64,000 nucleotides of DNA from Candidatus Kapaibacterium sp. (lineage in GTDB: Bacteria; Bacteroidota; Ignavibacteria; Kapaibacteriales; UBA4661): assembly GCA_025455065.1 (NCBI GenBank), contig JALONG010000004.1:86690-150689 (forward strand). Direction: 5' to 3'. Both the position numbers and the translations under genes were made by a program. Below the pieces are notes generated by a model that saw only the letters and a list, made by a program, of their open reading frames with translations, was not told the origin of the DNA and made no database searches. Numbering within the stretch: position 1 is the first letter of the stretch; each line of letters opens with the position of its first letter. This document shows positions 9,427 through 57,147 of this stretch, piece after piece.

Positions 9427-9565
9427 GAGATCCCCAAAACAGGCAAAATACACCTCATTACTCTCTACAAGCATACGACAAATGCACGAGAAGATATCGC
9501 AACATTGACAGAATACTCGCAAAAACGCAAGAGCATCGCTCTCCATCCACATTTCCACAAAAGCA

Positions 9566-9614
9566 GAATGAAGAATGAAGAATGAAGAATGAAGAATGAA
9601 GAATGAAGAATGAA
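9566..9614. repeat. Heptanucleotide microsatellite (GAATGAA)x7
   Basis: Perfect tandem heptamer repeats read directly in the sequence. Confidence 0.8.
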
Positions 9615-11193: not shown

Positions 11194-11302
11194 AGGACAA
11201 CAAGAAAAACAGTGTTGAGTGCTAAATGTTGAGTGCTAAATGTTGAGTGCTGAGTTCCGCGTTTTGCGTGTCAAACTTGACGCAAAGCCTCACCAAACCA
11301 CG

Positions 11303-11608
11303 CTACTTCGCAAGCGGTCGAATCATTTTGAGTGATAACGTGTAACGTTCTTGCGGTGCGCCCGATGTATCCAGCACTGCCACAAGAGCCTCCTGAGCGC
11401 TTTGGTTCAGTTCTTCCACGCGGTAACGAATACCATTCGGGCTTTCAACGGCAGCTTCGACAATATCGCCCGCTTTGATGCCTTTCCAATGCTCAAAGTT
11501 CTCATGGCTGCTGCGTTTCCAATCTACGGGGCGGTAGAGCGTATAAAAAAAACGTTTGAAGATGTTCATATTGAGGGCGAATAAAATGTGGAGAAAATCG
11601 GTTATCAA
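11303..11608 (-). CDS. Hypothetical small protein (about 85-101 aa) immediately upstream of clpB
   Basis: ORF only, no recognised motif. Its 5' end overlaps the over-extended rsmB ORF, so the true start may be an internal Met. Confidence 0.35.
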   Translation of the reverse strand: MITDFLHILFALNMNIFKRFFYTLYRPVDWKRSSHENFEHWKGIKAGDIVEAAVESPNGIRYRVEELNQSAQEALVAVLDTSGAPQERYTLSLKMIRPLAK

Positions 11609-11779
11609 AAATTACGAAAAAACACGTATTTTGCAAGGCTTCGGTGTTTCTGCGGATTTGCTTATCGCAACATTGACCGCAACACTTCAAAGATAGTATT
11701 TTCCGTGCAATTTTTGAACGCCGAAACATTGTTCCGAATATTTTCCGTAGCACTTTTGTTCACTCTTTTTGGTTTCATC

Positions 11780-13864
11780 ATGTCCAATCACGACCAATCG
11801 CAGCCCCGCTCCCAAGAATCGCAAACTTCTCCGCAACAGCAAGAACGCCATTCCCAAGGCAAACCCAATGCCGGAGCGCATCAACAATCTCACCCAAAGC
11901 AGCGCGACAACCAGCAACACGACAACCAGCAACACGATAAACAGCCGCATCAAAAACACCAGCACGATAAGCAGCAGCAAGGGAAAACCCCTCAAAACCG
12001 ACCTCAACAGGAACGTGCGCAGCACAACCGACACAACAACGACAAACAACAGCGCGAGCATCAACCCCACAATGCTCACAAACCCAGTCATAATGCGCCT
12101 TCGGGAGAAGAGCGTCCGCAGCGTCCATATCAACATCAGCGTGACAACCAGCGCCCAAATGATAACCAGCGCCCAAATGATAACCAGCGCCCAAATGATA
12201 ACCAACGTCCAAATGACTTTCAACGCCAAAACGACAACCAGCGTCCTCAGAGACATGACCGTCCGCAGCACCAAGACCGGCGCGGTCAAGAGCGACACGA
12301 CGGCAACAACGACAATTCGCAACGCGAGTACCGTCCACGCTTTGAGCGGCAACCGAATCCCTACACGCCGGAGTTCATCCCCACGCATAGCGGCATAGAA
12401 CGCCCCGAACAGTTGGAAGAACTGCGCAAGCGCGGTATTCCTGAGGCGCTCCGCTACGACGACCCGCCTTACGTTCCCGACAAACCCGCAAAGGGCAGCG
12501 ACAACATTTTTTACAAGGATTTTAATCCGCTTTATACAACGGCTCGTGGGCTTGCAATCAAGATTTTATCACGTCTCGACCAGAGCGATTCGTATTTGGA
12601 CAAACTTGTGGAATACGAACTCGCACACTGCGATTTGAAGCCCGTTGATAGAGCGCTTTTGACAGAACTTGTGCATGGCGTTACGCGCTGGCAAGCGCGT
12701 CTGGACTGGATTTTGACGGGATTTTATCACGGCGAATTTGTCAAATGTATCGTTCCAGTGAAAAATGCAATGCGCATTGCACTCTACCAAATCATGTTTT
12801 TACAGCGTATTCCGCCCTTTGCGGCAGTGAGCGAATCGGTCGAATTTATCAAGCGTTTGAAGGGCGCACGGTCGGGGAATTTGGTCAATGCGATTTTGCG
12901 GAATATCTTGAACAATATCAACAATATCCGTTACCCGATTCGCAATGAAGATGTTGCACGGCATTTTTCGATTCTCCATTCGCACCCGTTTTGGCTTGTG
13001 AAGCGTTGGCTGGAGCGTTTCGGCGAAGAAGGCGCAGAGGCGCTGTTGAAGGTGAATAACGAGCGTCCGAAAATTTCGCTCAGGATGAATATGCTGCGTT
13101 GCAATGTCGAGGAATTTTATACGTTCCTCCAAATCCAAGATGTGAAGCGCTGGGATGCTCCCTTTGACACAGAGCGATTTACACTTGTCGGTTCGCTGTC
13201 GTCGGTGCGAGAGTGGAAGCCCTTCCGCGACGGGTGGTTTTCGGTGCAGGATTTGAGCGCTTCGATGGTGGTGAAACTCGCCAATCCTCAGCGCGGACAG
13301 CGTATTTATGACCTTTGTGCGGCACCGGGCGGAAAATCAACCTACATGGCGGAACTCATCGGCAACGAAGGCACAATCATTGCGCTGGACAAATACGCAG
13401 GAAAACTGACCACAATTCAAGAAAATGCAGAACGTTTGCAACTGACCTGCATTTCCACGCAGGCACAGGACGCACGGCACTTTGCGCCGAAGGAACTTGC
13501 CGACATCGTGCTTGTGGATGCACCCTGTTCGGGCTTGGGAACGCTTGCCAAAAAGCCGGATATTAAGTGGAAGTTTGAGACGACTGATTTTACGCCGCTT
13601 GTGCGCACGCAGCGTGAAATTTTGAAAAATGCCGCAAAACTTGTCAAACCCGGCGGAGCGCTTGTGTACAGCACTTGCACGATTGAACCGGAAGAAAACA
13701 CGGAGCAGATAGCGTGGTTTTTGGAGCATTTTCCCAACTACGAACTTGACCGCGCCGAACAGTATTTACCCCAAGAAGTCTGCAACAACGGCTTTTTGCA
13801 GACCTTTCCGCACCTTCACCAAACCGACGGCGCGTTTGCGGCACGGTTTGTGCGCAAGAAGTGA
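11780..13864 (+). CDS. rsmB: 16S rRNA m5C967 methyltransferase RsmB/Sun with an unusual ~230-aa low-complexity Q/H/N/R/P-rich N-terminal extension
   Basis: NusB-like region plus SAM-methyltransferase motifs DLCAAPGGKS and DAPCSGLGT. Start chosen at MSNHDQ (11780); the supplied ORF begins at 11588 but overlaps the convergent upstream gene. Confidence 0.85.
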   Translation: MSNHDQSQPRSQESQTSPQQQERHSQGKPNAGAHQQSHPKQRDNQQHDNQQHDKQPHQKHQHDKQQQGKTPQNRPQQERAQHNRHNNDKQQREHQPHNAHKPSHNAPSGEERPQRPYQHQRDNQRPNDNQRPNDNQRPNDNQRPNDFQRQNDNQRPQRHDRPQHQDRRGQERHDGNNDNSQREYRPRFERQPNPYTPEFIPTHSGIERPEQLEELRKRGIPEALRYDDPPYVPDKPAKGSDNIFYKDFNPLYTTARGLAIKILSRLDQSDSYLDKLVEYELAHCDLKPVDRALLTELVHGVTRWQARLDWILTGFYHGEFVKCIVPVKNAMRIALYQIMFLQRIPPFAAVSESVEFIKRLKGARSGNLVNAILRNILNNINNIRYPIRNEDVARHFSILHSHPFWLVKRWLERFGEEGAEALLKVNNERPKISLRMNMLRCNVEEFYTFLQIQDVKRWDAPFDTERFTLVGSLSSVREWKPFRDGWFSVQDLSASMVVKLANPQRGQRIYDLCAAPGGKSTYMAELIGNEGTIIALDKYAGKLTTIQENAERLQLTCISTQAQDARHFAPKELADIVLVDAPCSGLGTLAKKPDIKWKFETTDFTPLVRTQREILKNAAKLVKPGGALVYSTCTIEPEENTEQIAWFLEHFPNYELDRAEQYLPQEVCNNGFLQTFPHLHQTDGAFAARFVRKK
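12146..12217 (+). repeat. 18-bp tandem repeat x4 (aaccagcgcccaaatgat) encoding (QRPNDN)n inside rsmB
   Basis: Three perfect copies and one diverged copy. Translated as NDNQRPNDNQRPNDNQRPNDNQRPND. Confidence 0.8.
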
Positions 13865-17741: not shown

Positions 17742-18521
17742 ATGGGAAAACGATGGCGAATATTGCGACCAATCACAAACATTATGAATCTATATTTTTT
17801 ACCCTTTGCCGCATCGTTGCTGCTTTTTTTGCCGAAAGCACTCAATGCGCAAAATGATAACCCGCATTGGCGCATTGCGAGTACGTTTCTCCAAAACCGA
17901 AGACAAACCAATGACCCCACAAGAATAGCACTCGGCAGCGTACTCAATTTTTACGGCTATAACGACCTCCAGCCCCAATTTGAAAAAGATTTTTCTTCCA
18001 TTCCGAACCGTTATCAAACGGGCGAAAACTATGATAACTTTGTTGCCGACATGACGAACTGGACACTCCTTCCCATCTACTGGGGCGGTACGGCGTGGTC
18101 AACGGCGGTGTCGGTGGTCAGTTTTATAGGGGGTGATATTCTCGGCGGCATCTGGCACGCCTTCGGCGCGGTGCAGTGGTCACGTGGGGCAACATACCTG
18201 ACGTGGACAGCGAAACACGACTGGAATAAGCTCATAGGCGCACAGCGTACGGTACAAAAGCAAGTCTTTGTCATCCGCACCCAGTTCAATTTCCCATGGG
18301 TTTTTGCGGGCAACGTACTGCTGGATGTCGTTGAAGATACTGACGGCGATGGACTCTTTGGGGAGGAGGCGCAGAAATATAGAGGAACTAACTCTATTGG
18401 TTTATACGAAGCCGAAGGTATGAGCCATAATGTGTCCTCGAATCATCCAAAATCCAAACAGCAGTTTGAGAGAGCGTTTGATAACCCGAATATCCCATTT
18501 TACGCACCCAAAAGGAGATAA
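17742..18521 (+). CDS. Secreted hypothetical protein carrying a glycine-rich hydrophobic module (first gene of a four-gene cassette)
   Basis: Signal-peptide-like N-terminus (MGKRWRILRPITNIMNLYFLPFAASLLLFLPKALNAQ); the alternative start is 17784. Hydrophobic segment MTNWTLLPIYWGGTAWSTAVSVVSFIGGDILGGIWHAFGAVQW. No family recognised. Confidence 0.5.
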   Translation: MGKRWRILRPITNIMNLYFLPFAASLLLFLPKALNAQNDNPHWRIASTFLQNRRQTNDPTRIALGSVLNFYGYNDLQPQFEKDFSSIPNRYQTGENYDNFVADMTNWTLLPIYWGGTAWSTAVSVVSFIGGDILGGIWHAFGAVQWSRGATYLTWTAKHDWNKLIGAQRTVQKQVFVIRTQFNFPWVFAGNVLLDVVEDTDGDGLFGEEAQKYRGTNSIGLYEAEGMSHNVSSNHPKSKQQFERAFDNPNIPFYAPKRR

Positions 18522-18524
18522 TTT

Positions 18525-19718
18525 ATGAAACGCCTAATTCTTCGACTGTATTTCTTCTGTCTGTGCATTGCAAGCCTGAATGCTTCTGCTTGCGACCCTT
18601 TAACAAGTTCCAGAGAACAATTTCTTTGGAAACAATCACTTTCTGACGGAAAACTTATCGAAGGTGAGTTGCCTAATATTCTGTATAATGGCACTATTAT
18701 TTCACTAGGTATGAGTGGTGGTAAACGAACACTCTATGCTTTTGATGCAAGTAGTGGAGAACCTCGCTGGCGATGGTCAGATTGGTTTTTGAGTGATAGA
18801 AGCATTTTAGTGGATTATGTGCATACTTTTGATAACGTGCTTGTTATTTGTAACAGAGGACCGAATTATGGCATTGATACTCGTACAGGAAAAACAATCT
18901 GGAGCAATGACATAAAGAATAGAGAATCAGGCTCACAGGGAGCAAGCGGAATAGGACAATTATATTTTTTTGGTACTTATATTTCCGTGACAGAAAATTA
19001 TCTGATGCAAGGCAATATATACCGAGATGATGAGAGAGTTCTTGTTTCCTTACCTCGCGGAACAGGCGCAAAACACTCAACACCGTTTGTAGCCCAAAAC
19101 GGCGATACAATGCTGGTCTATTTCTCCACCTACGGAGAACCAGCAACAAATTTTCGGAACAGAACCTACATCAGTCTCTACAATGTCAGTAAACGCCAAG
19201 AAATCTATACTCTTCTTCAAGACACAAGTTCACCCGAAAATGCCAATGTTCTTACTGGCGGCGTTCCTTTAATCCGTAACAAAACTATTTATAGTGCTAT
19301 TGGGCGCAGTGTTCAAGCTAATGATATCGAAACAGGAAAACTCCTTTGGAGGACAAAAACGGAGTGGGATTTTAACGTCTCTGGTATAATTGAAGCTGAT
19401 GGAATAATTATTGGGAATAACCCAGATGGGTTTCTTCATGCTTTTGAAAGTCAAACAGGGAAATTATTATGGAGAGTTAAGGCTTCTGGAACTTCACGCA
19501 GACCTTTTTATATGAATGGTGTCGTTTACATCGTTGGTGTTGGGGATGGAAAATTATATGCGTTTGATGCAAAAACAGGCGATAAAATTTGGGCTTTTGA
19601 TTCTCCTGACGATAACGGTCGTTCTGGGTCTTCGTTTGATGGTATCGTTACAGGTGCGAACGGCAAAATCTATGCCCGCTCGTTTCTCAACCTCTACTGT
19701 TACAGAGCAGCACGATGA
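18525..19718 (+). CDS. Secreted PQQ-repeat-like (BamB-like) beta-propeller protein, possible lipoprotein
   Basis: Signal sequence with ...LNASAC. Repeated L(Y/H)AFDAxTGxxxW motifs (LYAFDASSGEPRWRW, GKLLWRTK, GKLLWRVK, LYAFDAKTGDKIWAF). Lies 4 bp after the upstream gene. Confidence 0.6.
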   Translation: MKRLILRLYFFCLCIASLNASACDPLTSSREQFLWKQSLSDGKLIEGELPNILYNGTIISLGMSGGKRTLYAFDASSGEPRWRWSDWFLSDRSILVDYVHTFDNVLVICNRGPNYGIDTRTGKTIWSNDIKNRESGSQGASGIGQLYFFGTYISVTENYLMQGNIYRDDERVLVSLPRGTGAKHSTPFVAQNGDTMLVYFSTYGEPATNFRNRTYISLYNVSKRQEIYTLLQDTSSPENANVLTGGVPLIRNKTIYSAIGRSVQANDIETGKLLWRTKTEWDFNVSGIIEADGIIIGNNPDGFLHAFESQTGKLLWRVKASGTSRRPFYMNGVVYIVGVGDGKLYAFDAKTGDKIWAFDSPDDNGRSGSSFDGIVTGANGKIYARSFLNLYCYRAAR

Positions 19719-19915
19719 GCAGAAGCATACATATTGCCGGCATGACGAACTGGACACTCCTCCCCGCCTTCTGGGGCGCGACGGCGTGGTCAACGGCGGT
19801 GTCGGTGGTAAACTTTGTGGGCGGTAATGTGGTGGGCGGGCTGTGGCACGCTTTCGGTGCTGTGCAGTGGTCACGCGATGAATTACTGGAAATGGCGCAA
19901 TCGCTGATTCGATAA
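19715..19915 (+). CDS. 66-aa orphan paralog of the glycine-rich hydrophobic module
   Basis: MTNWTLLPAFWGATAWSTAVSVVNFVGGNVVGGLWHAFGAVQWSRD aligns with 36 of 46 residues identical to residues of the 17742 gene. The start overlaps the upstream stop (ATGA). Confidence 0.4.
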   Translation: MSRSIHIAGMTNWTLLPAFWGATAWSTAVSVVNFVGGNVVGGLWHAFGAVQWSRDELLEMAQSLIR

Positions 19916-23115: not shown

Positions 23116-23137
23116 GCACAGACAGGAATGTCTGTGC
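23116..23137. repeat. Palindromic repeat core gcacagacaggaatgtctgtgc (dispersed family member)
   Basis: Perfect 9-bp arms with a 4-nt spacer and the shared flanks ctcGCACAGACA...TGTCTGTGCcactga. Located in the lepA-lepB intergenic region. Confidence 0.7.
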
Positions 23138-23264
23138 CACTGATTGTCAAACTTACCATTTTGTGTTCGAGCCAATTCTCATACAAACAAAGGTATCGTA
23201 ATTCCGAACCATTACTTTTGAGACTTTTCCAAGCACTCAACCTTCTTTACTCATCATTTCAATT

Positions 23265-28245: not shown

Positions 28246-28326
28246 ACCAATACTCGCACAGACAAAAATGTCTGTGCCACTGAAGCCTGTTTTTATGCAC
28301 AATTATCAACTCAAATTGGTGTAACA
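28246..28326. repeat. Partial copy of the composite dispersed repeat (palindrome core plus 3' module)
   Basis: tactcGCACAGACAaaaaTGTCTGTGCcactgaagcctgtttttatgcacaattatcaactcaaattggt. Matches 50153-50205. Confidence 0.7.
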
Positions 28327-37622: not shown

Positions 37623-37667
37623 GTTTTACCGCTCAGGTATGACCGCTCAATGAGTTTTACCGCTCAG

Positions 37668-37775
37668 GTATTATACCAATTTACGTTGAAGATTGTGCAT
37701 TGTTTTTTCAATGCTTTTCTCTGGAAGCAGCATAAATACTCGCACAGACAAGAATGTCTGTGCCACTGACTTCTC
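37668..37775. repeat. Partial copy of the composite dispersed repeat (5' module plus palindrome core)
   Basis: tataccaatttacgttgaagattgtgcattgttttttcaatgcttttctctggaagcagcataaatactcGCACAGACAagaaTGTCTGTGCcactga. Matches 50019-50118. Confidence 0.75.
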
Positions 37776-38446
37776 CCAATATCATCATTGCCCTTGACGG
37801 TCCGGCAGGTTCGGGCAAAAGCACCACAGCTCGCCGTGTGGCGGAAGCGCTGGGCTATGTGTACATTGACACCGGCGCTATGTACCGCGCAATCACGCTT
37901 GCTGCCTTGCGGGAAGAACGCTCCATTACGAACTCCGACTTGCTTCCCATTGTCAAAGAGTATCAATTACAACTCACCATTTCACCCGACGGACAGCGTA
38001 CAATCTTGGGGCGCGAGGATGTTACCGAAGAAATTCGCTCGCCGGAAGTGACAAAACTTGTAAGCGCTGTTAGCGCTTTGCCGTCGGTGCGCGAAGCAAT
38101 GTCAAAACGGCAGCGCGAAATGGGCAAAAACGGTGGTGTTGTCATGGACGGGCGGGACATTGGAACGGTCGTGTTCCCCGAAGCCGAACTGAAAATTTTT
38201 CTTATAGCATCGCTCGAAGAACGCGCTAAACGCCGATTGGCGGAACTAAAGGACAGTTCTGTTTCGCTGGAAGAAATGTGCAAGCAAATCAGTGAACGCG
38301 ACAAGCAAGACACAGAGCGCCTTGTCAGCCCCTTGCGCAAAGCGGACGATGCCGTTGAAATTGATACTTCCGCGCTCAGTATTGATGCTCAAACAGAGCG
38401 TATTTTGGCGCTGGCACGGGAACGTATTGCGGCAAAGCGGGGATGA
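37754..38446 (+). CDS. cmk: Cytidylate kinase
   Basis: IIIALDGPAGSGKST P-loop and DTGAMYR motif. The ATG start lies inside the spacer of the palindromic repeat. Confidence 0.9.
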   Translation: MSVPLTSPNIIIALDGPAGSGKSTTARRVAEALGYVYIDTGAMYRAITLAALREERSITNSDLLPIVKEYQLQLTISPDGQRTILGREDVTEEIRSPEVTKLVSAVSALPSVREAMSKRQREMGKNGGVVMDGRDIGTVVFPEAELKIFLIASLEERAKRRLAELKDSSVSLEEMCKQISERDKQDTERLVSPLRKADDAVEIDTSALSIDAQTERILALARERIAAKRG

Positions 38447-44078: not shown

Positions 44079-45104
44079 ATGAAGACACTCGCTCTTGAAA
44101 TTCTCGGACGATTCCATAATGATTTCGACACACCGTGGAAAGAAGCGCTTGAAATCTACTTTCAAGAGTTTATGGAGTTTTTCTTTGCCGAAGCCGCCAC
44201 GCAGATTGACTGGAACAAAGGCTACGAATTTTTGGATAAAGAACTGCAAGCAATCATGCGTGAAAGCGAAATTGGAAAGCGCTATGCCGATAAACTCGTG
44301 CGTGTGCATTTACGCACTGGCGAAGAATCGTGGCTGCTGGTGCATATTGAAATTCAAGGGCAGCAGGAAAGCGATTTTGCCAAACGAATGTTTATCTACA
44401 ATTACCGAATTTTCGACCGTTATGAGCATCCGGTAGCGAGTTTAGCCGTTTTGACCGATAGTTCTCAAACATGGAGACCGCATGAATACTCGTATTCTTC
44501 TCTCGGCTCGGAAATGCGCCTGACATTCCCCATTGCAAAGATGTTGGATTTTGCGGAACAGTGGGCGCTGCTTGAAGAAAGTGCGAATCCGTTTGCGGTG
44601 ATTGTCATGGCGCATTTGAAAGCCATCGAAAAAGGCTTGTCGCCGGAAGATCGCATGAAATGGAAGGTGTTGATTGCCTCGGCGCTCTATCGGAAAAATA
44701 CCGCTAAAAGCGATATTATCAAGATTTTGGGATTTTTGGACTGGCTCATCACACTGCCGACCGAGCTACAACAACAATTTCGTACCACTATTGACATACT
44801 GGAGAAACGCAATATGCCGTATTTATCAACGTTTGAGCGCGAAGCAATGTTGCGAGGAATTGAGCAGGGCTTAGAACAAGGAATGCAACAAGGAATGCAA
44901 CAAGGAATGCAACAAGGAATGCAACTTGGTTTACAGATGCTTCGTGAAAATATCACCTTCGGCTTACAAGCACGATTTGGCGATGCCGCCGCACATCTCA
45001 TTGCAGAAATTGATACAATCACGGATTCCGAGCGCTTGAACGGCATCCTTCATGCGCTTTTTACGGTATCTTCGCTAGAGGAAATTCGGCAATTACTACG
45101 CTAA
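44079..45104 (+). CDS. Rpn/YhgA-like PD-(D/E)XK nuclease family 'putative transposase' with DUF4351-like C-terminus
   Basis: Conserved LVHIEIQ motif with an upstream acidic residue, and a C-terminal helical domain resembling DUF4351. Identified by motif recollection only. Confidence 0.6.
   Translation: MKTLALEILGRFHNDFDTPWKEALEIYFQEFMEFFFAEAATQIDWNKGYEFLDKELQAIMRESEIGKRYADKLVRVHLRTGEESWLLVHIEIQGQQESDFAKRMFIYNYRIFDRYEHPVASLAVLTDSSQTWRPHEYSYSSLGSEMRLTFPIAKMLDFAEQWALLEESANPFAVIVMAHLKAIEKGLSPEDRMKWKVLIASALYRKNTAKSDIIKILGFLDWLITLPTELQQQFRTTIDILEKRNMPYLSTFEREAMLRGIEQGLEQGMQQGMQQGMQQGMQLGLQMLRENITFGLQARFGDAAAHLIAEIDTITDSERLNGILHALFTVSSLEEIRQLLR
44877..44924 (+). repeat. 12-bp tandem repeat x4 (caaggaatgcaa) encoding (QQGM)4
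   Basis: Perfect tandem copies inside the Rpn-like gene. Confidence 0.8.
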
Positions 45105-48930: not shown

Positions 48931-50016
48931 ATGAAAACTCCCCCTTCATCCTCAACCACCCCGCGAACCCGCGCCCGTACTCGCTTCGGAGCGCAAGAAC
49001 ACTCTGCGCCCTCGCCAAATTCGCATGAGCAGTCAGAAAAGCATTCTCCAAGCGGTTTACAGGTCTTGCAGCAAATCCGCATTACGCCCCGTCGGTTGAA
49101 AGAATCGCTCACAACGGCAGAAATACTGACACTGACGATGCTTACGTTTTATACGGTTTTGGGCTGTATTTTTGCGACGGTCGTGGAAAATACGCTCATG
49201 TACATCGTGGTAAATTGCTGTTTTATGTGGATGCAATGCGCCTTAGCGGTAAGCGTGTCGGAGAACGAAACGGGGCGTATCTTTCGGTCATTGCTCATTG
49301 CGCGGCGATTTTTCCTGCTTCCGGCGATTTATTTCATTTACTCCCAATCCCACCTGTATATCACGCACATCAACCCGCATGATTACGACGCATTGCTGGC
49401 AGAATGGGACGTTGCGCTCTTTGGCGTGTATCCGACGCGCTGGATATATCAATTCGCACACCCGCTTTTGACGGAGTTCTTGCAAATTTGTTATTTCCTC
49501 TATTTCTGGATTCCCGTTGGCTTGGGGGCTGAATTTTACACGTCGCGCCCGACGATTTACTACACGCGCTATGCGCTTTACGTGGCGTGTGTGAGTTATG
49601 CGCTGTATCTGGGATATTTTTTTATGCCGGCAATCGGTCCTTGCTTCACGCTGCATGATTTTTCGCAGTGGAACGCCGAACTTCCGGGCATCGTTTTTGC
49701 CGAACCGCTCCGCGCTATTGTCAATAACGGCTCCGGCGCAGGCACGGCGACACCGCATCTGACCGCGCACCGCAACTGTATGCCAAGCGGTCACACGATG
49801 GTAACGCTGCTGAATATGATGATTGCTTTTCGGTGGAAGTCGCGTTTTCGCTGGGGGTATTTCGTTATTGGTTGCGGCATTATTGTTTCGACGATTTATC
49901 TGCGCTATCACTACGTGGTGGATTTGCTTGCCGGAGCGGTAGTAACGGTCTTGGCGCTGCTTTTTGCAAGGGTTTTGGAGCGTACCTTGAGGAAGATTGG
50001 TTTTGCTGCGGCGTAA
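48931..50016 (+). CDS. PAP2-superfamily membrane protein (phosphatase / phospholipid-headgroup transferase-like)
   Basis: PSGH and R-x5-H-x3-D motifs (CMPSGHT, RYHYVVDLLAG) in a multi-TM protein. Start uncertain; the N-terminal ~60 aa may not be coding. Confidence 0.55.
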   Translation: MKTPPSSSTTPRTRARTRFGAQEHSAPSPNSHEQSEKHSPSGLQVLQQIRITPRRLKESLTTAEILTLTMLTFYTVLGCIFATVVENTLMYIVVNCCFMWMQCALAVSVSENETGRIFRSLLIARRFFLLPAIYFIYSQSHLYITHINPHDYDALLAEWDVALFGVYPTRWIYQFAHPLLTEFLQICYFLYFWIPVGLGAEFYTSRPTIYYTRYALYVACVSYALYLGYFFMPAIGPCFTLHDFSQWNAELPGIVFAEPLRAIVNNGSGAGTATPHLTAHRNCMPSGHTMVTLLNMMIAFRWKSRFRWGYFVIGCGIIVSTIYLRYHYVVDLLAGAVVTVLALLFARVLERTLRKIGFAAA

Positions 50017-50018
50017 GG

Positions 50019-50205
50019 TTTTATACCAATTTACGCTGAGGATTGTGCATTATTTTTTCAATGCTTTTCTCTGGAAGCAGCATAAATACTCGCACAGACA
50101 AGAATGTCTGTGCCACTGACATAAATACTCGCACAGACAAGAATGTCTGTGCCACTGAAGCCGGATTTTTTTGCACAGTTATCAACTCAAATTGGTATTA
50201 TGCTG
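50019..50205. repeat. Most complete copy of the composite dispersed repeat (5' module, two tandem palindrome cores, 3' module), MITE/REP-like
   Basis: ttttataccaatttacgctgaggattgtgcattattttttcaatgcttttctctggaagcagcataaatactcGCACAGACAagaaTGTCTGTGCcactgacataaatactcGCACAGACAagaaTGTCTGTGCcactgaagccggatttttttgcacagttatcaactcaaattggt. Modules are shared with 37668-37775 and 28246-28326. Confidence 0.75.
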
Positions 50206-50978: not shown

Positions 50979-52244
50979 ATGAATCTTCTGAAAAATTTCC
51001 CTTCATCGCCATTTTTGGTGTTTGTTATTGCGGCAGCTTTTTTTGTTGCCTACGGCTCATTTTTGGTGATGACACAGCTTGCCGCAAGCCCGTTTGTTCT
51101 CTTTGTTTCGTCGGTATTTTTGCTCTTTCCCTTTCGCAATGAATCCGTTCATGTCAAACGCATGATGGTTTTGCTGTGTTTGACCTTTGCGGCATGGCTT
51201 TTCCGCGAGGTGGGAAGCCTCTTTGCACCGTTTTTTGTGGCATTTGCCTTTGCGTATTTGTTCGAGCCGGTGGTGCAGTTTTTACAGCGCAGAAAATTCC
51301 CGCGCTGGCTTTCGGCAGGGCTGTTGGTGCTAGCATTTATCAGCCTTGTAGCCTCTATTGTGGTCTTTGTATTCCCGATTATTTTGGCACAACTCAACGA
51401 CATTATCAGGGAAATGTCCTCGCTCATTACCCGCGCAACGGCGTACTTAGAAAGCAGACAGTTTTTCCGTTTGCTTTCCAGTTACGGCTTAAATTCCCCA
51501 CAAACCCGCGAATTGATTCAGCGTGAACTTGTGCCGCGCTTGGAAGGCTCATTCAACCTCATTTTGCGCACGTTGCTCACATTTTTGAGCAGCCTTTCGG
51601 ATGTGGTTACGCAAGTGGTGAACATCATCCTCACGCCGATTTTGATGTTTTATTTCACCAAAGATTTCGACAAAGTAAAAGCCTTCATCGTCAAGGTTTT
51701 AAGCGGTCAGCAGTCGAAATTGCTGTTTGATTTGTACCGCATCAACGGCATCGTGAAAGCATACATTAGCGGGCAGGCAATCGCGGCGGTGATGATAGGC
51801 ACGGCTTCCAGCCTCATTTTCTTTGCTTTTGGGATTCCTTATTCCGGCGTTATCGGCACGGTGTGCGGTTTGCTCAATCCGATTCCGTATATCGGGATGT
51901 TTTCGAGCATCATTATCGGCTTGATAACAGTCGTGGTGGTGGGTTCGGGCGATGCGATTATGTTTTCGCTGGCGGTTATTACGACGACAGTCTTGGGGCT
52001 GCATTTAGTGGACAATTATGTCTTGCAGCCGCGTATTGTCGGGCAGCGTGTGGGATTGCACCCGCTTGTGATGATTGCTTCACTCTTGCTTTTTGGGCAT
52101 TTTTGGGGAATTGCAGGCTTGCTTATGGCGGTTCCGATTATGGCAAGTATGATGATGTTCTTCAACGATTGGCTGACGGCAAAACTCGCCGCCCAAGAAG
52201 CACCGGAAATGCCCGTAGAATCTATGATTGCCGATGCGATGTAA
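50979..52244 (+). CDS. AI-2E family (UPF0118/PerM-like) membrane transporter
   Basis: 8-TM profile with the characteristic long central loop and conserved GLLNPIPYIG-type motif. Start set at MNLLKNF; the ORF is open from 50637. Confidence 0.75.
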   Translation: MNLLKNFPSSPFLVFVIAAAFFVAYGSFLVMTQLAASPFVLFVSSVFLLFPFRNESVHVKRMMVLLCLTFAAWLFREVGSLFAPFFVAFAFAYLFEPVVQFLQRRKFPRWLSAGLLVLAFISLVASIVVFVFPIILAQLNDIIREMSSLITRATAYLESRQFFRLLSSYGLNSPQTRELIQRELVPRLEGSFNLILRTLLTFLSSLSDVVTQVVNIILTPILMFYFTKDFDKVKAFIVKVLSGQQSKLLFDLYRINGIVKAYISGQAIAAVMIGTASSLIFFAFGIPYSGVIGTVCGLLNPIPYIGMFSSIIIGLITVVVVGSGDAIMFSLAVITTTVLGLHLVDNYVLQPRIVGQRVGLHPLVMIASLLLFGHFWGIAGLLMAVPIMASMMMFFNDWLTAKLAAQEAPEMPVESMIADAM

Positions 52245-52290
52245 TGTGATGCCGATGTACGTTAATACCTGTGCAAAAATACAGGCTTCC

Positions 52291-52420
52291 GTAGCACAGA
52301 CATTCCTGTCTGTGTCCGAAATGAGCAAAGCGAATAATCTTCAAGCAGGGTAATTTCAGTAAGATACGGCATTACGCCTATCGGCGTTAAAGACACAGAC
52401 AAGAGTGTCTGTGCCACGAA
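52291..52420. repeat. Two diverged, oppositely oriented palindrome cores (gtagcacagacattcctgtctgtg; gacacagacaagagtgtctgtgcc) flanking a small hairpin (acgcctatcggcgt)
   Basis: Members of the same CACAGACA-N-TGTCTGTG family. Located downstream of both convergent genes (AI-2E and mltG). Confidence 0.6.
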
Positions 52421-52486
52421 GAAATTCCTTGATGCTTAACTTGGATGAAGCCTATGATTTTGGACACGCTATTTTTTTCACCACCT

Positions 52487-53539
52487 CTAAATGTTAATCT
52501 TCCCCGCTCTACGCCTTGCGCGGAATATCGCCACAGCTTGCTGATGCTCCGCACCGTTGCGGGTGAAGGTGTGCGTATTTGTACCGTCCAATTTTGCCAC
52601 GAAGTAATAGAATCCATGCGCTTCGGGAGCAAGTGCAGCTTTGATTGCGGCGCGTCCGGGGGAGTTAATCGGCGCGGGTGGCAATCCGGCGTATTTGTAG
52701 GTATTGAAGGGGCTGTCAATTTCTAAATCCGCAAAAAGCAGGCGGCGACTTGTGCGATTGGGGTTTTTAATGTCATAGACATACTGCACGGTCGGGTCTG
52801 CTTCCAACTTCATCCCGATTTTATACCGATTCCAATACACCCCCGAAACACGCGGTTTTTCGTCATCCACAGGTGTTTCTGCCTCGACGATGGAAGCCAG
52901 CGTCAGCGTTTGGTGACGGTCAATGCCCGTTGTGGCAGTGCTGGAGACTTCGCGCCAAAATTCGTCTTGTTCATCCAAAAGTTTGTCCAGCACTTCGTTT
53001 GCGGGAGTTTTTTTGTAAAATTCGTAGGTGTTTGGCATCAAATACCCTTCAATAGTCGCCGTCGTGATTCCACGCGCTTTACGCAGCGAGTCGGAATAGG
53101 CAATCCGTAAAAATTCTCCTTTATCACAGCCTATTTTTTCCGCCGCAATTTCTGCATATTTGCGAAGCGTGATTCCTTCTTGGAAGGTAACGGTTGCCGT
53201 TTGTAAATTACGCTTGGAAAAAAGCCGCATAATTACCATAAATTGAGGCATATTCGGCTCAATGGTAAAAATGCCGCGCTGAATCGCTCGCTCTTGCTGC
53301 CACGCCACAGCACGGGCAAAGAGCCGCGCAATAGTCGGCGAGGTAATAATGGAGCGGTTTTCAAGCTGCGTTATGGCAGTATTGATGCTCATTTTGGGGC
53401 TGACATAAAACTCCATCGGCGTAGCAGTCTCCACAGGCTTAACAAGCTGGACAAAACTGTACCCGGCAAGGCTTGCAATGATAACTATCGGAAGCCCGAT
53501 AATAACGGCGATTCGCTGACCACGAGTCATAGAAAACAC
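52487..53539 (-). CDS. mltG: Endolytic murein transglycosylase MltG (YceG-like)
   Basis: N-terminal TM anchor and YceG-like domain (GYLMPNTYEF, EAETP motifs). Confidence 0.85.
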   Translation of the reverse strand: MFSMTRGQRIAVIIGLPIVIIASLAGYSFVQLVKPVETATPMEFYVSPKMSINTAITQLENRSIITSPTIARLFARAVAWQQERAIQRGIFTIEPNMPQFMVIMRLFSKRNLQTATVTFQEGITLRKYAEIAAEKIGCDKGEFLRIAYSDSLRKARGITTATIEGYLMPNTYEFYKKTPANEVLDKLLDEQDEFWREVSSTATTGIDRHQTLTLASIVEAETPVDDEKPRVSGVYWNRYKIGMKLEADPTVQYVYDIKNPNRTSRRLLFADLEIDSPFNTYKYAGLPPAPINSPGRAAIKAALAPEAHGFYYFVAKLDGTNTHTFTRNGAEHQQAVAIFRARRRAGKINI

Positions 53540-53636
53540 GATGTATTCAACATTTGATGAACTTTAAGGCTGCTAATATGCGAAATTTCCTTCAGGCGAC
53601 AAAGCGCCATTCTCGAAAACACGCTTCAAATAATCT

Positions 53637-54078
53637 TCTTCGTAGCACAGACATTCCTGTCTGTGTCCCTAACGCCGTTAGGCGTAATTCCGAAAGGACA
53701 GCAATGGGTGAAAATTCTTCCCGTAGCACAGACATTCCTGTCTGTGCCCCTAACGCCGTTAGGCGTAATTCCAAAAGAACAGCAATGGGTGAAAATTCTT
53801 CCCGTAGCACAGACATTCCTGTCTGTGCCCCTAACGCCGTCAGGCGTAATTCCGAAAGGCATAATACCAAAATCATCGTAACAACAACCTTTTCAAGATT
53901 ATACGCTTCGCGTATTAGTGACACAGACAAGAATGCCCGTGCTACGGGGGGAGAAGACATTCTTGTCTGTGTTTCTAACGCTGAAAGGCATAATACCGAA
54001 AGTATCGTAACAACAACCTTTTCAAGATTATACGCTTCGCGTATTAGTGGCACAGACAAGAATGTCTGTGCTACGGGT
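53637..54078. repeat. Tandem repeat array: three 81-bp units followed by two ~126-bp units, each containing the CACAGACA-N3-TGTCTGTG palindrome (not CRISPR)
   Basis: Units start at 53641, 53722 and 53803 and are nearly identical (cgtagcacagacattcctgtctgtg[t/c]ccctaacgccgttaggcgtaattcc...agcaatgggtgaaaattcttcc). A second unit type starts at 53858 and 53984 (ggcataatacc...cgtattagtg[a/g]cacagacaagaatg...). Lies in the divergent mltG / M1-peptidase intergenic region. Confidence 0.8.
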
Positions 54079-54080
54079 GT

Positions 54081-57000
54081 CATTGTGTTACTTCTGATGC
54101 TTGCCGCACTATCCCTCCAAGCCCAGCCCACAAGCGGCTTCCCGCAAAACCTCGAAGAACGCCTCAAACAAGAGCGCCTCGCGGGGCTTGTCCACACGAT
54201 GAACGTTACGGTTAATGATGATGATTACACCTTCAAAGGCACGTCCCGCGTGGAGTTCACCAATAACACGCCTGACACGCTGCGCCAAATCTTCTTCCAC
54301 GCCCATTTCAACGCCTTTCAGCCGAACAGCCTCACGCATAAGCGCGTTGCGGCAATCGGTCCGAACCGCTTAAAACCTGAAACCTTTGCTAATCTCAAAC
54401 CAAACGAAATCGGCAAACTTGACATTCTGCCCGGCACAAGTAATGGAGCGCCTTTCACGGTAGAGCGCTTGGGAACGATTATCCGCTTAGACCTTGCAAA
54501 ACCGCTTCTGCCCGAAGAGCGCACCACGCTTGAGTTTGCCTTTGAGGGACAAGTTCCCGTGCAGGTGCGGCGCTCAGGGCGCAATAATGCTCAAGGTGTG
54601 CGCTATTCGATGGCGCAATGGTTTCCGAAATTATGTCAATACGACCAACACGGCTGGCAAAATAACCAATTTGTTTTGCGAGAATTTTACGGCGTGTGGG
54701 GTAAATATGATGTGAAAATTACGCTTCCCGCAAAGTACGTCGTTGGCGCTTCCGGCGACCTCCAAAACCCGCAAGAATGCGGCTTCGGCTATCCCTTCAC
54801 CGGAAGCGCCGCAAGCGACACAACCGTTATGCCGCTTCCCGATGCACAAAAGCCACAAGGCACGAAAACATGGCACTTTGTGGCATTTCCCGTGCATGAT
54901 TTCGCGTGGGTTGCCGATGCGGACTATATTCACCGCGTCGTCAAAATGCCAGTTTCTTCGCCAGTTTCGGCAGGAATGACCTTTCACATTCTCACCAAAC
55001 CCAAGTACGACGCGGTTTGGAAGAACGCTGTGGATTGGCTGCCGCGTGTCTTTCGCTTTATGGGCGAGAAGTATTTGCCATATCCTTACAAGCAATTTAC
55101 CTGCACACAAGCGGGCGACGGCGGTATGGAGTACCCAAATTTGGTGATGATTCGGAGCGGTGATTACAACGGGACGCTTGGCACAGTCGCGCACGAGGCA
55201 ATACACCAGTGGTTTTACGGCATGGCGGCGAATAACGAAACCAAACACGCTTGGATGGACGAAGGCATCACCGATTACCTCACCGACCGCATTATGGCTG
55301 AGGAGTTTAAGATTGATGAGCAGCAGCGCTCCACGTGGCTAGAGCAGACGCTCATTCCGCGCCGCAAGGACGCTTTAGAATCGAATCGGGCGTTTTTGCG
55401 GGTGTATGCGCTTGGCTACGATGAACCGCTCTCTATCCCGCATGACCGCTTTAACGAGGACATGACCGCCGTGATGGTTTACCGCAAAGGTTCGGCGTGG
55501 ATGCGGCAATTTGAGTATTCGTTTGGCAAGGACAAGGTTGATGAACTACTGAGGAATTATCAGGCTCAGTGGCGTTTCCGTCACCCATATCCGCCGGATT
55601 TCGAGAAATTGGCAAGCGAAACTTTTGGGCAGCGCATGGATGAAGTGTTTGACACCTTTTTGCGCGGCACGGAACTTCCCGATTACACGCTTCAATCCTT
55701 GCGTTCTGAGCCGACAAGCGACGGAAAATTCAAAAACACGCTGCAAATGACCAAACGCGAACGCGCTCACGTGCCGCTTCGCCTCTTTGCAACGGATGTG
55801 GGCGGTCAGCGCAGCATTTTGACGATTCCCAGCGATATGCTGAATGCGCCAAACAACGACACAAGCCGCCTTGCGCCTTGGTTCTGGGCAGCAGGCGATT
55901 ACACCGCAGAATTTATCACCCAAACCCCACTCCGTGAAGTTCGGCTGGACACCGCAGGAAATCTGCTTCGCCAAGACCTCACGAAAAATAGCATTCAAGC
56001 GGGCGGATTGTTTCCTGCCATGCCGGATGTCAAATTCGGCTTTATGACGCGCTTCGACGAAGCTATGCCGCTTGATTATTATGGTGTGTCGGTGCGCCCG
56101 TCGGTGTGGTTTGACCCGCTTGGGGGCTTGCAACTTGGGGTAAGGGCGGATGGTGTTGGCGGCTACAATACGCCAAAAATCACGGCTGGGGCGTATTACA
56201 ATTTGGGGAATCGGCGGTTTGATTGGCAGGTGGGGCTTCAGCAGACGCTTGGCGGGAATGGGGTTATTAACACTTTTGACGCGAAAATCTTTAGTATGGA
56301 TGGAGTTCGTGGGGTTTCTTTGCGGGCATTGAACGACATTCGCCCAACGCGATATGCCCGTGAGTCATTCGGGCTGAGTTCGATAATGATTGACTTTTTA
56401 GACTTCGGAGATGATAGTTATCTACTGCCCGAAATATCCAGTACAACCTTCAGAGGTGCAATGATGCGGTTGGGTGCAATCAGTGAACAACGCTGGCGAA
56501 ATGGCTATGTGCAATTAGAGGCAAATATTTCGTCTGACGGTTTTATTTTTATCGACGGACAAGTTCGATTTGAATGGTCAGACACTTTTTTTGAATCACC
56601 GTATTTCAGCATAAAACCTCGTGCTTTCGTGTATTTGGCAACTATCGGAACGCCGCGCTTCTTACAATATTCCCTTCAAAGTGGTACTTCACTAGAGCGT
56701 TTTGAAAATATACCGGCACGCTATACACGTTTCGCGGCTTACAATTTTAATCTCCCTGTTTTCACACAAGGAGGCGGTGGGTTCGTAAATTCTGCAAACG
56801 AGGCGACAAGCGCTATTGCGGCTGTCAATCTCTTTTTGGGGAACAAAACACTTAGATCAATGGGCGTAAATATTTTTGGAATTGAAGTGCTAAAGCCCGG
56901 TGCATGGATTTCAGCAGCGTTTGCGCCCATACGTACCCAAAGTTCTTTTGACTTCAACTTCGACTCCGGCATCTCACTCGGCATCAATCTCGCAGACATC

Positions 57001-57147
57001 GCACCGGAGAGCCGTCTGTTGTGGACGTTCAAAAACGAAGTGTCGCTGACGGCGTACGTGCCGCTTGTTTCCTACATTCCCGGGCGGAATTGGATTCTGG
57101 GCTACGACGGAGTGCGCTTTGGTGTCAGCACGACGATAGGGCAGTAA
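54081..57147 (+). CDS. Secreted M1-family zinc aminopeptidase-like protein with a ~480-aa C-terminal extension of unknown function
   Basis: HEAIHQWFYG...WMDEGITDY (HExxH-x18-E) M1 signature, plus a hydrophobic signal-like segment LLLMLAALSLQAQP. The start is uncertain (GTG 54081 or ATG 54099); the supplied ORF (from 53554) runs through the repeat array and that part is not believed coding. Confidence 0.7.

Follow-up and report, generated by a model that had tools for sequence, protein, structure and literature searches.

Canonical repetitive extragenic palindromic (REP) sequences are defined by a hairpin that bears a 5' GT[AG]G tag at its foot, and TnpA-REP subclasses are present in Bacteroidetes (Quentin 2018, PMC6006769). 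REP dimers with the tags pointing outward, conserved spacers that sometimes carry a terminal small stem-loop, and clusters of dimers reiterated together with the flanking DNA were described in a survey (Di Nocera 2013, PMC3733652), which listed no GTAG REPs for the Kapaibacterium/Ignavibacteria-like lineage of the Fibrobacteres-Chlorobi-Bacteroidetes (FCB) group and only the CGTC type in Bacteroidetes and Chlorobi. Intragenic REPs are known in Opitutus, Thauera and Rickettsia conorii, and the largest REP-encoded stretches in that survey were 43-82 amino acids (aa) (PMC3733652). The Rickettsia palindromic elements (RPEs; Ogata 2000) are found in frame in protein genes and some RPE-1 elements are expressed in vivo (PMC10969869). 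Here, a tandem array of palindromes was analysed that stands next to mltG, at the 5' end of the gene for an M1-family metallopeptidase, in 64,000 nucleotides (nt) of Candidatus Kapaibacterium sp. (assembly GCA_025455065.1, contig JALONG010000004.1, forward positions 86,690-150,689). This whole 64-kb stretch is called the window, and coordinates are positions in it unless another locus is named. The findings taken together were best explained, with a probability of about 65%, by a REP cluster that was amplified in frame inside the signal-peptide coding region of the peptidase gene.

The array was compared with the GTAG REPs, the REP doublets forming hairpins (REPINs) and the bacterial interspersed mosaic elements (BIMEs) of E. 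coli, Pseudomonas and Stenotrophomonas. Like these, it is built from a short tagged palindrome, copies of which are dispersed in the window between unidirectional and convergent genes; the tag-outward dimers fold as one hairpin, the dimer clusters stand in tandem with flanking DNA, and both presence or absence and copy number differ from strain to strain. A REP stem-loop has a stem of 5-13 bp and a loop of 2-20 nt, and the palindrome of the window has a 9-bp stem and a 4-nt loop. Because the tag, the stem-loop, the tag-outward dimers and the tandem clusters match the published REP definitions, the array is very probably a cluster of a dispersed GT(A/G)G-tagged REP family of a Candidatus Kapaibacterium-like clade. 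It differs from the known GTAG REPs in its FCB-group host, in the stem, which is a perfect 9-mer of mixed AT/GC composition and not GC-rich, in the location of the cluster inside a coding region, and in that no cognate REP-associated tyrosine transposase (RAYT) was found in the sequence examined. No description of this REP family, or of its host lineage as a REP carrier, was found in the literature searched.

As with RPEs and intragenic REPs, the palindromic inserts are in frame and stop-free and would be tolerated in permissive parts of proteins, for which N-terminal cases are known. The element of the window is located in a coding sequence (CDS), in frame and without stops, and the orthologs at locus L029 and in proteins P0005, P0010 and P0016 have no insert. 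Unlike in RPEs, the insert of the window separates the n-region of a cleavable signal peptide from its h-region and is therefore predicted never to be present in the mature protein. Its size (~153 codons) and the several different inserts found at one site across the clade set it apart from both RPEs and intragenic REPs. The principle of intragenic palindromic repeats is already established; what is unusual is where the insert sits, how large it is and the comparative series.

The doublets also resemble MITEs (miniature transposable elements with inverted repeats) such as Correia, ERIC and Nezha in being non-autonomous units of 120-145 nt, the outer 34 nt of which form terminal inverted repeats that are 94% complementary, in folding into a long hairpin, in insertion polymorphism and in possible in-frame read-through. 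They differ in that no evident target-site duplication was seen at the one site examined and no autonomous partner was seen. Their termini are GT(A/G)G-tagged REP palindromes, which suggests the REP/RAYT world rather than the MITEs of DDE transposases. Regularly spaced palindromic repeats are also a feature of CRISPR arrays, which were rejected as an explanation because the segments between the palindromes are themselves repeated, the palindromes occur in both orientations and are also dispersed singly, and neither unique spacers nor cas genes were found among the ~45 open reading frames (ORFs) of the window searched with Pfam. An earlier reading of the window, made by a model from the letters alone (the sequence-only reading), had likewise called it a minisatellite-like tandem array of palindrome-bearing units and not a CRISPR array, and both of these points hold.

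Organization of the array and the REP family

Tandem Repeats Finder reported an array at 53641-53858 with a period of 81 nt, 2.7 copies, 96% matches and a score of 408, and a repeat search placed the beginnings of the 81-nt units at 53641, 53722 and 53803. Two longer units follow, in which matches of 102 nt (53847-53948 and 53976-54077, 91% identical) are spaced 129 nt apart. Thus, the succession of 81-bp and longer units given in the sequence-only reading is real and its estimate of ~126 nt for the longer ones has to be replaced by 129 nt. The same reading had assigned a 3-nt loop to the palindrome, which was found instead to be CACAGACA-N4-TGTCTGTG, with the loop TTCC in CACAGACA-TTCC-TGTCTGTG and half-sites 12 nt apart; an N5 version of the pattern gave zero matches. 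The 9-bp stem (G-CACAGACA / TGTCTGTG-C) with its 4-nt loop folds at -14.4 kcal/mol (z -4.4). The second small hairpin noticed earlier in the first unit type, AACGCC-GTTA-GGCGT, is present after the palindrome in units 1-3 (53671, 53752 and 53833) and in degenerate form at 53977.

The 129-nt unit was found to be an inverted doublet, in which a spacer of ~60 nt separates a forward palindrome, accompanied by the small hairpin, from a reverse palindrome (Table 1). Doublet 1 contains the forward REP at 53804-53827, the small hairpin at 53833-53847, the spacer and a degenerate reverse REP at 53922-53945. In doublet 2 the left REP is short of its 5' half-stem (53948-53971) and the right REP is intact (54051-54074). 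Each of them folds into one long hairpin (z -4.9 to -6.0), and the array region as RNA is strongly structured (z -10). The REP hairpins were rejected as intrinsic terminators, as no T run follows them and a terminator scan, in which 0.8 sites were expected, gave 2 that are unrelated to them. No tRNA was detected anywhere in the window, and Rfam at gathering score gave no match to it, including no CRISPR-DR match.

Table 1. Coordinates of the array, the genes beside it and the other REP copies in the window.
Feature	Position	Strand	Remarks
mltG (YceG-like endolytic transglycosylase) CDS, 347 aa, ATG 53530	52487-53530	-	Pfam YceG E 5.4e-76
True mltG-peptidase intergenic spacer, 47 nt	53531-53577		sequence and length (47-49 nt) conserved across relatives
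Ancestral start and signal-peptide n-region of the M1 peptidase, MRNFLQATK, 27 nt	53578-53604	+	ortholog starts, DNA conservation
Leader of the inserted material, 36 nt (RHSRKHASNNLL)	53605-53640	+	first 21 nt: one difference, L086/window vs L083
81-nt units A1 and A2	53641-53721, 53722-53802	+	each with GTAG-tagged palindrome, small hairpin and 24-nt tail
Doublet 1, tags outward	53803-53946	+	counterpart of the single doublet of L086; -49.2 kcal/mol, z -5.95
Doublet 2, 129-nt duplicate	53947-54077	+	-44.9 kcal/mol, z -4.86
Predicted hydrophobic core of the signal peptide with its cleavage region (GVIVLLLMLAALSLQAQ)	54076-54123	+	holds GTG 54085 (public start) and ATG 54097
Mature M1-family metallopeptidase, intact, HEAIH motif	54124-57147	+	Pfam Peptidase_M1; orthologs
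Free doublet, reverse orientation	52283-52420	-	between convergent 3' ends of an AI-2E transporter gene and mltG; -59.2 kcal/mol, z -7.86
Two tandem 39-nt units, each with a GTGG-tagged single REP	50081-50158	+	between PAP2 and Uma2 genes; Tandem Repeats Finder
Single GTGG-tagged REP	37743-37766	-	between cmk, the start codon of which it overlaps, and a HAD hydrolase gene
Single GTGG-tagged REP	28257-28280	-	between ribBA and prfC
Single GTGG-tagged REP	23117-23140	-	between lepA and lepB

The sequence-only reading had treated the repeat as a local array and missed that its unit belongs to a dispersed family. The window contains 27 half-sites CACAGACA against 1.45 expected, a number reached in none of 100 shuffles, and the ~13 palindrome copies in the 64 kb are all GT(A/G)G-tagged at one foot. 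The palindromes occur in both orientations, with perfect copies outside the array at 23117, 28257, 37743, 50093, 50132, 52295 and 52394. When the orientation was set by the TTCY loop, GT[AG]G was found at the same foot in 31/31 copies of the window and seven related loci (GTAG in 16, GTGG in 15). Tag-outward pairs form REPIN-like hairpin doublets of 120-145 nt, which were found at 53803-53946, 53947-54077 and 52283-52420 and in L086, L083, L007 and L122; those of the window fold with z -4.9 to -7.9. The free doublet at 52283 aligns end to end with the CDS-embedded units of the array. The copy numbers refer to the window and the related loci. The family is present in L003, L005, L007, L013, L083, L084, L086, L122, L159 and L161 and in a variant form in L160, and the palindrome was absent from ~140 loci of distant Bacteroidota. 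Three perfect short tandem repeats elsewhere in the window have no relation to the family: AGAATGA x7.1 at 9565-9614, a 12-mer x4.2 at 44875-44925 and a 14-mer x2.8 at 11213-11251. A tandem repeat of 18/36 nt was also seen at 12142-12246, within the N-terminal part of the RsmB-like ORF 11588-13864 and upstream of the NusB and methyltransferase domains of this ORF, and a direct repeat of 142 nt (18043-18184 and 19734-19875, 83% identical) stands on either side of the BamB-like PQQ-repeat gene at 18525-19718.

Dimeric regulators typically bind perfect inverted repeats of this kind, with 8-bp arms and a fixed gap of 4 nt, and copies are found near a divergent gene pair, so the 8-N4-8 repeat might be read as the site of a dimeric transcription factor that is reiterated to regulate mltG and the peptidase gene. 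The chance of this was considered almost negligible. The copies outside the array sit between unidirectional or convergent genes, downstream of genes and between convergent 3' ends; the invariant asymmetric GT(A/G)G tag, the long-hairpin doublets, the insertion polymorphism and the tandem amplification are traits of mobile repeats and not of operators; and the insert-free ortholog L029 has no such site at the corresponding promoter.

Position of the array relative to the peptidase start

The genes flanking the array are those named in the sequence-only reading, MltG/YceG (Pfam E 5e-76) and an M1 peptidase (Pfam E 8e-13). Orthologs of the peptidase with 69-97% identity were found in metagenome-assembled genomes labelled Candidatus Kapaibacterium or Ignavibacteria bacterium and in metagenomes, and the mature enzyme is under purifying selection (pN/pS, the ratio of nonsynonymous to synonymous differences per site, 0.06-0.12 against relatives). 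The insert-free orthologs (L029; P0005, P0010 and P0016) begin with MRNFLHAAK-AVLCTVVVLCLI...LSAQ, an ordinary signal peptide in which the hydrophobic core comes straight after MRNFLHAAK. The ORF at 53554-57147 is open through the whole array, as had been seen earlier with the same translation, and reads MRNFLQATK from ATG 53578, then the array and then the hydrophobic core GVIVLLLMLAALSLQAQ; the predicted array-encoded peptides in the peptidase frame include STDIPVCAPNAVR and IIVTTTFSR. The distance between ATG 53578 and the mltG ATG at 53530 is 47 nt, and it is 47-49 nt in every relative with an adjacent mltG. The window, L086 and L083 agree in all 27 nt from the conserved ATG, and AAGG 8 nt upstream of this ATG is kept in the window, L086, L004, L007 and L161.

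Because the insert-free orthologs use the conserved ATG and the spacing of this ATG to mltG is constant, the array lies where the n- and h-regions of the signal peptide join, inside the ancestral coding region, and not in an intergenic promoter. The earlier claim that it fills the intergenic space of a divergent promoter could not be upheld, as the spacer in syntenic relatives is only that of 47-49 nt and the array is downstream of the conserved peptidase ATG.

It was also observed that the first ~48 nt of the peptidase ORF (53578-53625) have one difference, in the last 21 nt, between window/L086 and L083, with a neighbouring synonymous divergence of ~0.47. Since the mltG ATG is only 47 nt away on the opposite strand, the promoter of mltG probably overlaps this segment. 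A sigma-70 promoter scan of 53300-54300 gave 0 sites and was probably uninformative, as the phylum uses other promoter motifs.

Reading frame through the array

The translation of the inserted material was examined in 11 loci that bear an insert, which were picked by mltG adjacency and not by reading frame. The conserved ATG is kept in these loci and the inserted material is 19-153 codons long. The inserts are of different kinds: the window-type leader plus doublet (window, L086 and L083), a second leader plus doublet (L007, L122 and L161), a three-palindrome version (L013), palindromes in another phase, read as AQTFLSV...QTRMSVP (L159 and L160), and unrelated inserted sequence (L004 and L006); L160 has in addition an in-frame duplication of 30 nt. 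In the peptidase frame there was no stop in 687 insert codons (11/11 loci), against 133 stops in 3435 codons (3.9%) of the other five frames over the same inserts. At this stop rate the chance of 250 independent codons remaining open is 5e-5. By our own count from the alignments, the insert loci differ by at least a dozen length changes, all of which are multiples of three. The doublet also exists as a non-coding copy, in which the frame equivalent to the peptidase frame contains 2 stops, and thus the element is not inherently open.

The encoded inserts were found to be net basic in 11/11 loci (+1 to +11). By the positive-inside rule, basic residues are found on the cytoplasmic side of a signal sequence, and the charge of the inserts would fit a cytoplasmic N-terminal flank of this kind. 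In L006, the stretch from the insert to the hydrophobic core is free of ATG, GTG and TTG, which makes an upstream start necessary in this locus. The old start is missing only in L003 and L005, in both of which the synteny with mltG is broken, and among the syntenic loci examined no counter-example to an open frame from the conserved ATG was found. These results together suggested that the array is probably translated as an in-frame N-terminal extension of the peptidase. The sequence-only reading had called the extension spurious, which was probably wrong, given that the insert-free orthologs use the upstream ATG and the frame is free of stops in all the differing inserts.

The array was also considered as a non-coding REP cluster in the 5' leader or divergent promoter, with the peptidase start moved to GTG 54085 or ATG 54097, where the hairpins and the copy number would modulate peptidase transcription, mRNA stability or initiation, and possibly the mltG promoter. 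We hold this to be unlikely, though much of what weighs against translation through the array speaks for it. The public (JGI) gene call for the identical sequence, of 1020 aa, begins at GTG 54085; in-frame ATG or GTG codons are found close to the hydrophobic core in most loci, and the GTG of L004 would yield a good signal peptide. Most REPs at the 5' ends of ORFs are held to be non-codogenic (Di Nocera 2013, PMC3733652). Divergence is 9-14% in the insert DNA but 24-50% at the synonymous sites nearby, and the first ~48 nt after the ATG are nearly invariant, which together with the strong RNA structure would fit a role as DNA or RNA, e.g. in the mltG promoter. The low divergence points to DNA-level constraint, homogenisation or recent acquisition beyond the peptide, the candidate causes being REP structure, concerted evolution and the mltG promoter. 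A non-coding leader leaves unexplained, however, why the frame is open and in phase in every one of these loci across so many length changes when the other five frames and the non-coding copy carry stops. A start at GTG 54085 would give MLLLMLAALSLQAQ, a signal peptide without a charged n-region; L006 offers no alternative start; and the conserved ATG is retained along with its AAGG.

Other findings also count against a translated, in-frame amplified array. The REP cores are stop-poor, with 5/6 phases open, and the antisense mirror frame is open as well in the REP-dimer inserts; openness is thus partly a property of the element. Selection is visible in the window's own amplification only in that 81 and 129 are multiples of three, and the intergenic 39-nt unit at 50081 is likewise a multiple of three. 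The pN/pS of the inserts was inconsistent, being ~0.36 in one pair and ~2.2 in another with small counts, and was not used as evidence. An n-region of 150 residues is unusual for a signal peptide. No cognate RAYT was found in the clade sequence examined: Pfam detected neither a RAYT nor any transposase among the ~45 ORFs of the window, a sample that cannot decide since RAYTs are usually single-copy; REP-flanked ORFs of L005 matched an aminotransferase, DUF4159 and proteins with type IX secretion system tails but no RAYT; and a HUH...YIxxNP motif scan over 320 kb of clade sequence gave nothing credible, by which the absence of a RAYT is not shown. A search of a 157-aa REP-encoded peptide against a protein database gave 686 word-sharing candidates, none with E <= 0.01, a result that leaves other REP-derived segments undecided.

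Two observations concern the antisense frame. The antisense ORF of 201 aa at 53592-54197 was rejected as a gene, as it has no Pfam match, ends 62 nt before mltG and owes its openness to palindrome symmetry. In L160 (1211-2455), the public call stretches mltG to 414 aa (347 aa in the window) by following the frame that is open antisense to the REP insert, and this longer mltG is an annotation artefact of palindrome symmetry.

Amplification and insertion polymorphism

Copy-number variation, which the sequence-only reading had anticipated, was found in L086, where the peptidase is 97% and the flanks are 98-99% identical and one doublet is present in place of the array. In a base-level alignment, the window exceeded L086 by exactly 162 nt (2 x 81) ahead of the first palindrome and by one 129-nt doublet behind it; A1 and A2 are both missing in L086. 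Because L086 holds one doublet at the same position, the array is a recent tandem amplification (+162 nt and +129 nt) of a single inserted doublet, to which A1 and A2 contribute 2 x 27 codons that were recently duplicated in tandem. The free doublet is polymorphic as well: a segment of ~229 nt (52243-52485) is missing in L086 (2267-2280), where the flanking matches, 98-99% identical, are 14 nt apart against 243 nt in the window. The comparison of this filled site with the empty one gave no clear target-site duplication at the one site examined.

The exact count of 81-nt units relies on short-read assemblies that are possibly not independent, which is a further weakness of the in-frame amplification. 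It was asked whether the count could be an assembly artefact, in which short reads had mis-resolved the tandem repeat and the real number of 81-nt units is higher or lower; this concerns the copy number and not the nature of the element. The units are 81 nt long and 96% identical. A protein identical to MltG of the window is encoded by L001, a JGI metagenome contig, and by a Logan contig, and the latter, a short-read contig, breaks within the first palindrome of the array. The 39-nt unit at 50081, of which the window has two perfect copies, is present once in L001 (9373-9411), which is otherwise 100% identical; this single unit is 46 nt from the contig end and may be an assembly collapse. Such an artefact is nevertheless improbable in the array, as the public contig L001 holds it 100% identical over 9.4 kb, and reads would be anchorable since 3 positions distinguish A1 from A2, while A3 continues into a unique spacer. 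An exact-sequence look-up of the 1020-aa peptidase returned no record, oddly, since P0001 is 100% identical.

Changes at the same place were also observed in loci of other structure. In L003 (6262-6541) and L005 (9839-10043), unrelated sequence without mltG stands upstream of the peptidase, and at the junction there is a REP remnant, TDKNVCAT / TGKNACAT in the peptidase frame, and a new Met immediately precedes the hydrophobic core; the repeat may have been the site of a rearrangement. The ortholog P0012, which has no REP, contains a small tandem duplication at residues 8-25 (AKAVLS / AKAVVS / AKAIL) at the junction of the n- and h-regions, which suggests that this site is prone to length change in general.

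Proposed mechanism and significance

A REP doublet would have been inserted or captured 27 nt into the M1 peptidase gene, between the charged n-region and the hydrophobic core, and would then have been amplified in place in the lineage of the window by 2 x 81 nt and by 1 x 129 nt, lengths that are each divisible by three, through slippage or unequal exchange between the directly repeated palindromes. Translation would still start at the ancestral ATG 53578, pass through the array to give ~153 basic and probably disordered residues, and then arrive at the hydrophobic core. The extension would be removed together with the signal peptide, leaving the mature enzyme unchanged and making the site a permissive one. 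As the n-region is discarded, a basic, stop-free and in-phase insert would be tolerated, only stop-free and in-frame inserts and duplications would survive at the site, and the insert would be nearly neutral. As to their own nature, the repeats most likely represent selfish or structural DNA that is mobilised or amplified through hairpin-prone DNA, and a cognate RAYT transposase is expected.

That the REP cluster is used and not merely tolerated was considered improbable. In that case the array would be a translated, copy-number-variable basic extension, and its in-frame gains and losses of length and its mRNA hairpins would tune the export or expression of the peptidase and also affect mltG through the overlapping promoter. 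If true, selfish repeats would make up a heritable 'dial' at this locus, and REP DNA would have a route into protein sequence.

A canonical GT(A/G)G REP/REPIN family would thus be documented for an uncultivated, Kapaibacterium-like lineage of the FCB group. One locus provides a clean natural series, from the empty site and the single doublet to diverged doublets, other kinds of insert and the amplified array, in which a selfish palindromic repeat appears to settle in a permissive part of a gene, the discarded portion of a signal peptide, and to expand under the sole constraint of an open frame. If the translation through the array is true, the extension would be among the longest REP-encoded protein segments known and a signal peptide of unusual architecture. 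The locus also gives a warning for annotation, as gene callers set the start of the peptidase after the array and extended mltG in L160, and assemblers break contigs at the repeats.

Single REPs in the window

The single REP beside cmk coincides with the start of this gene. In the cmk (cytidylate kinase) ORF at 37754-38446, the ATG is in the REP loop and the sole other in-frame start, GTG 37760, is in the 3' stem. As the Pfam match begins at residue 12 and starts are present only within the REP, the start codon of cmk would be sequestered within the REP hairpin.

Long flanking sequences were found to be common to the single REPs, with 96% identity over 105 nt between 37666-37770 and 50016-50120 and 94% over 31 nt between 28290-28320 and 50166-50196. 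In view of these conserved flanks, the single REPs may be pieces of a larger composite element.

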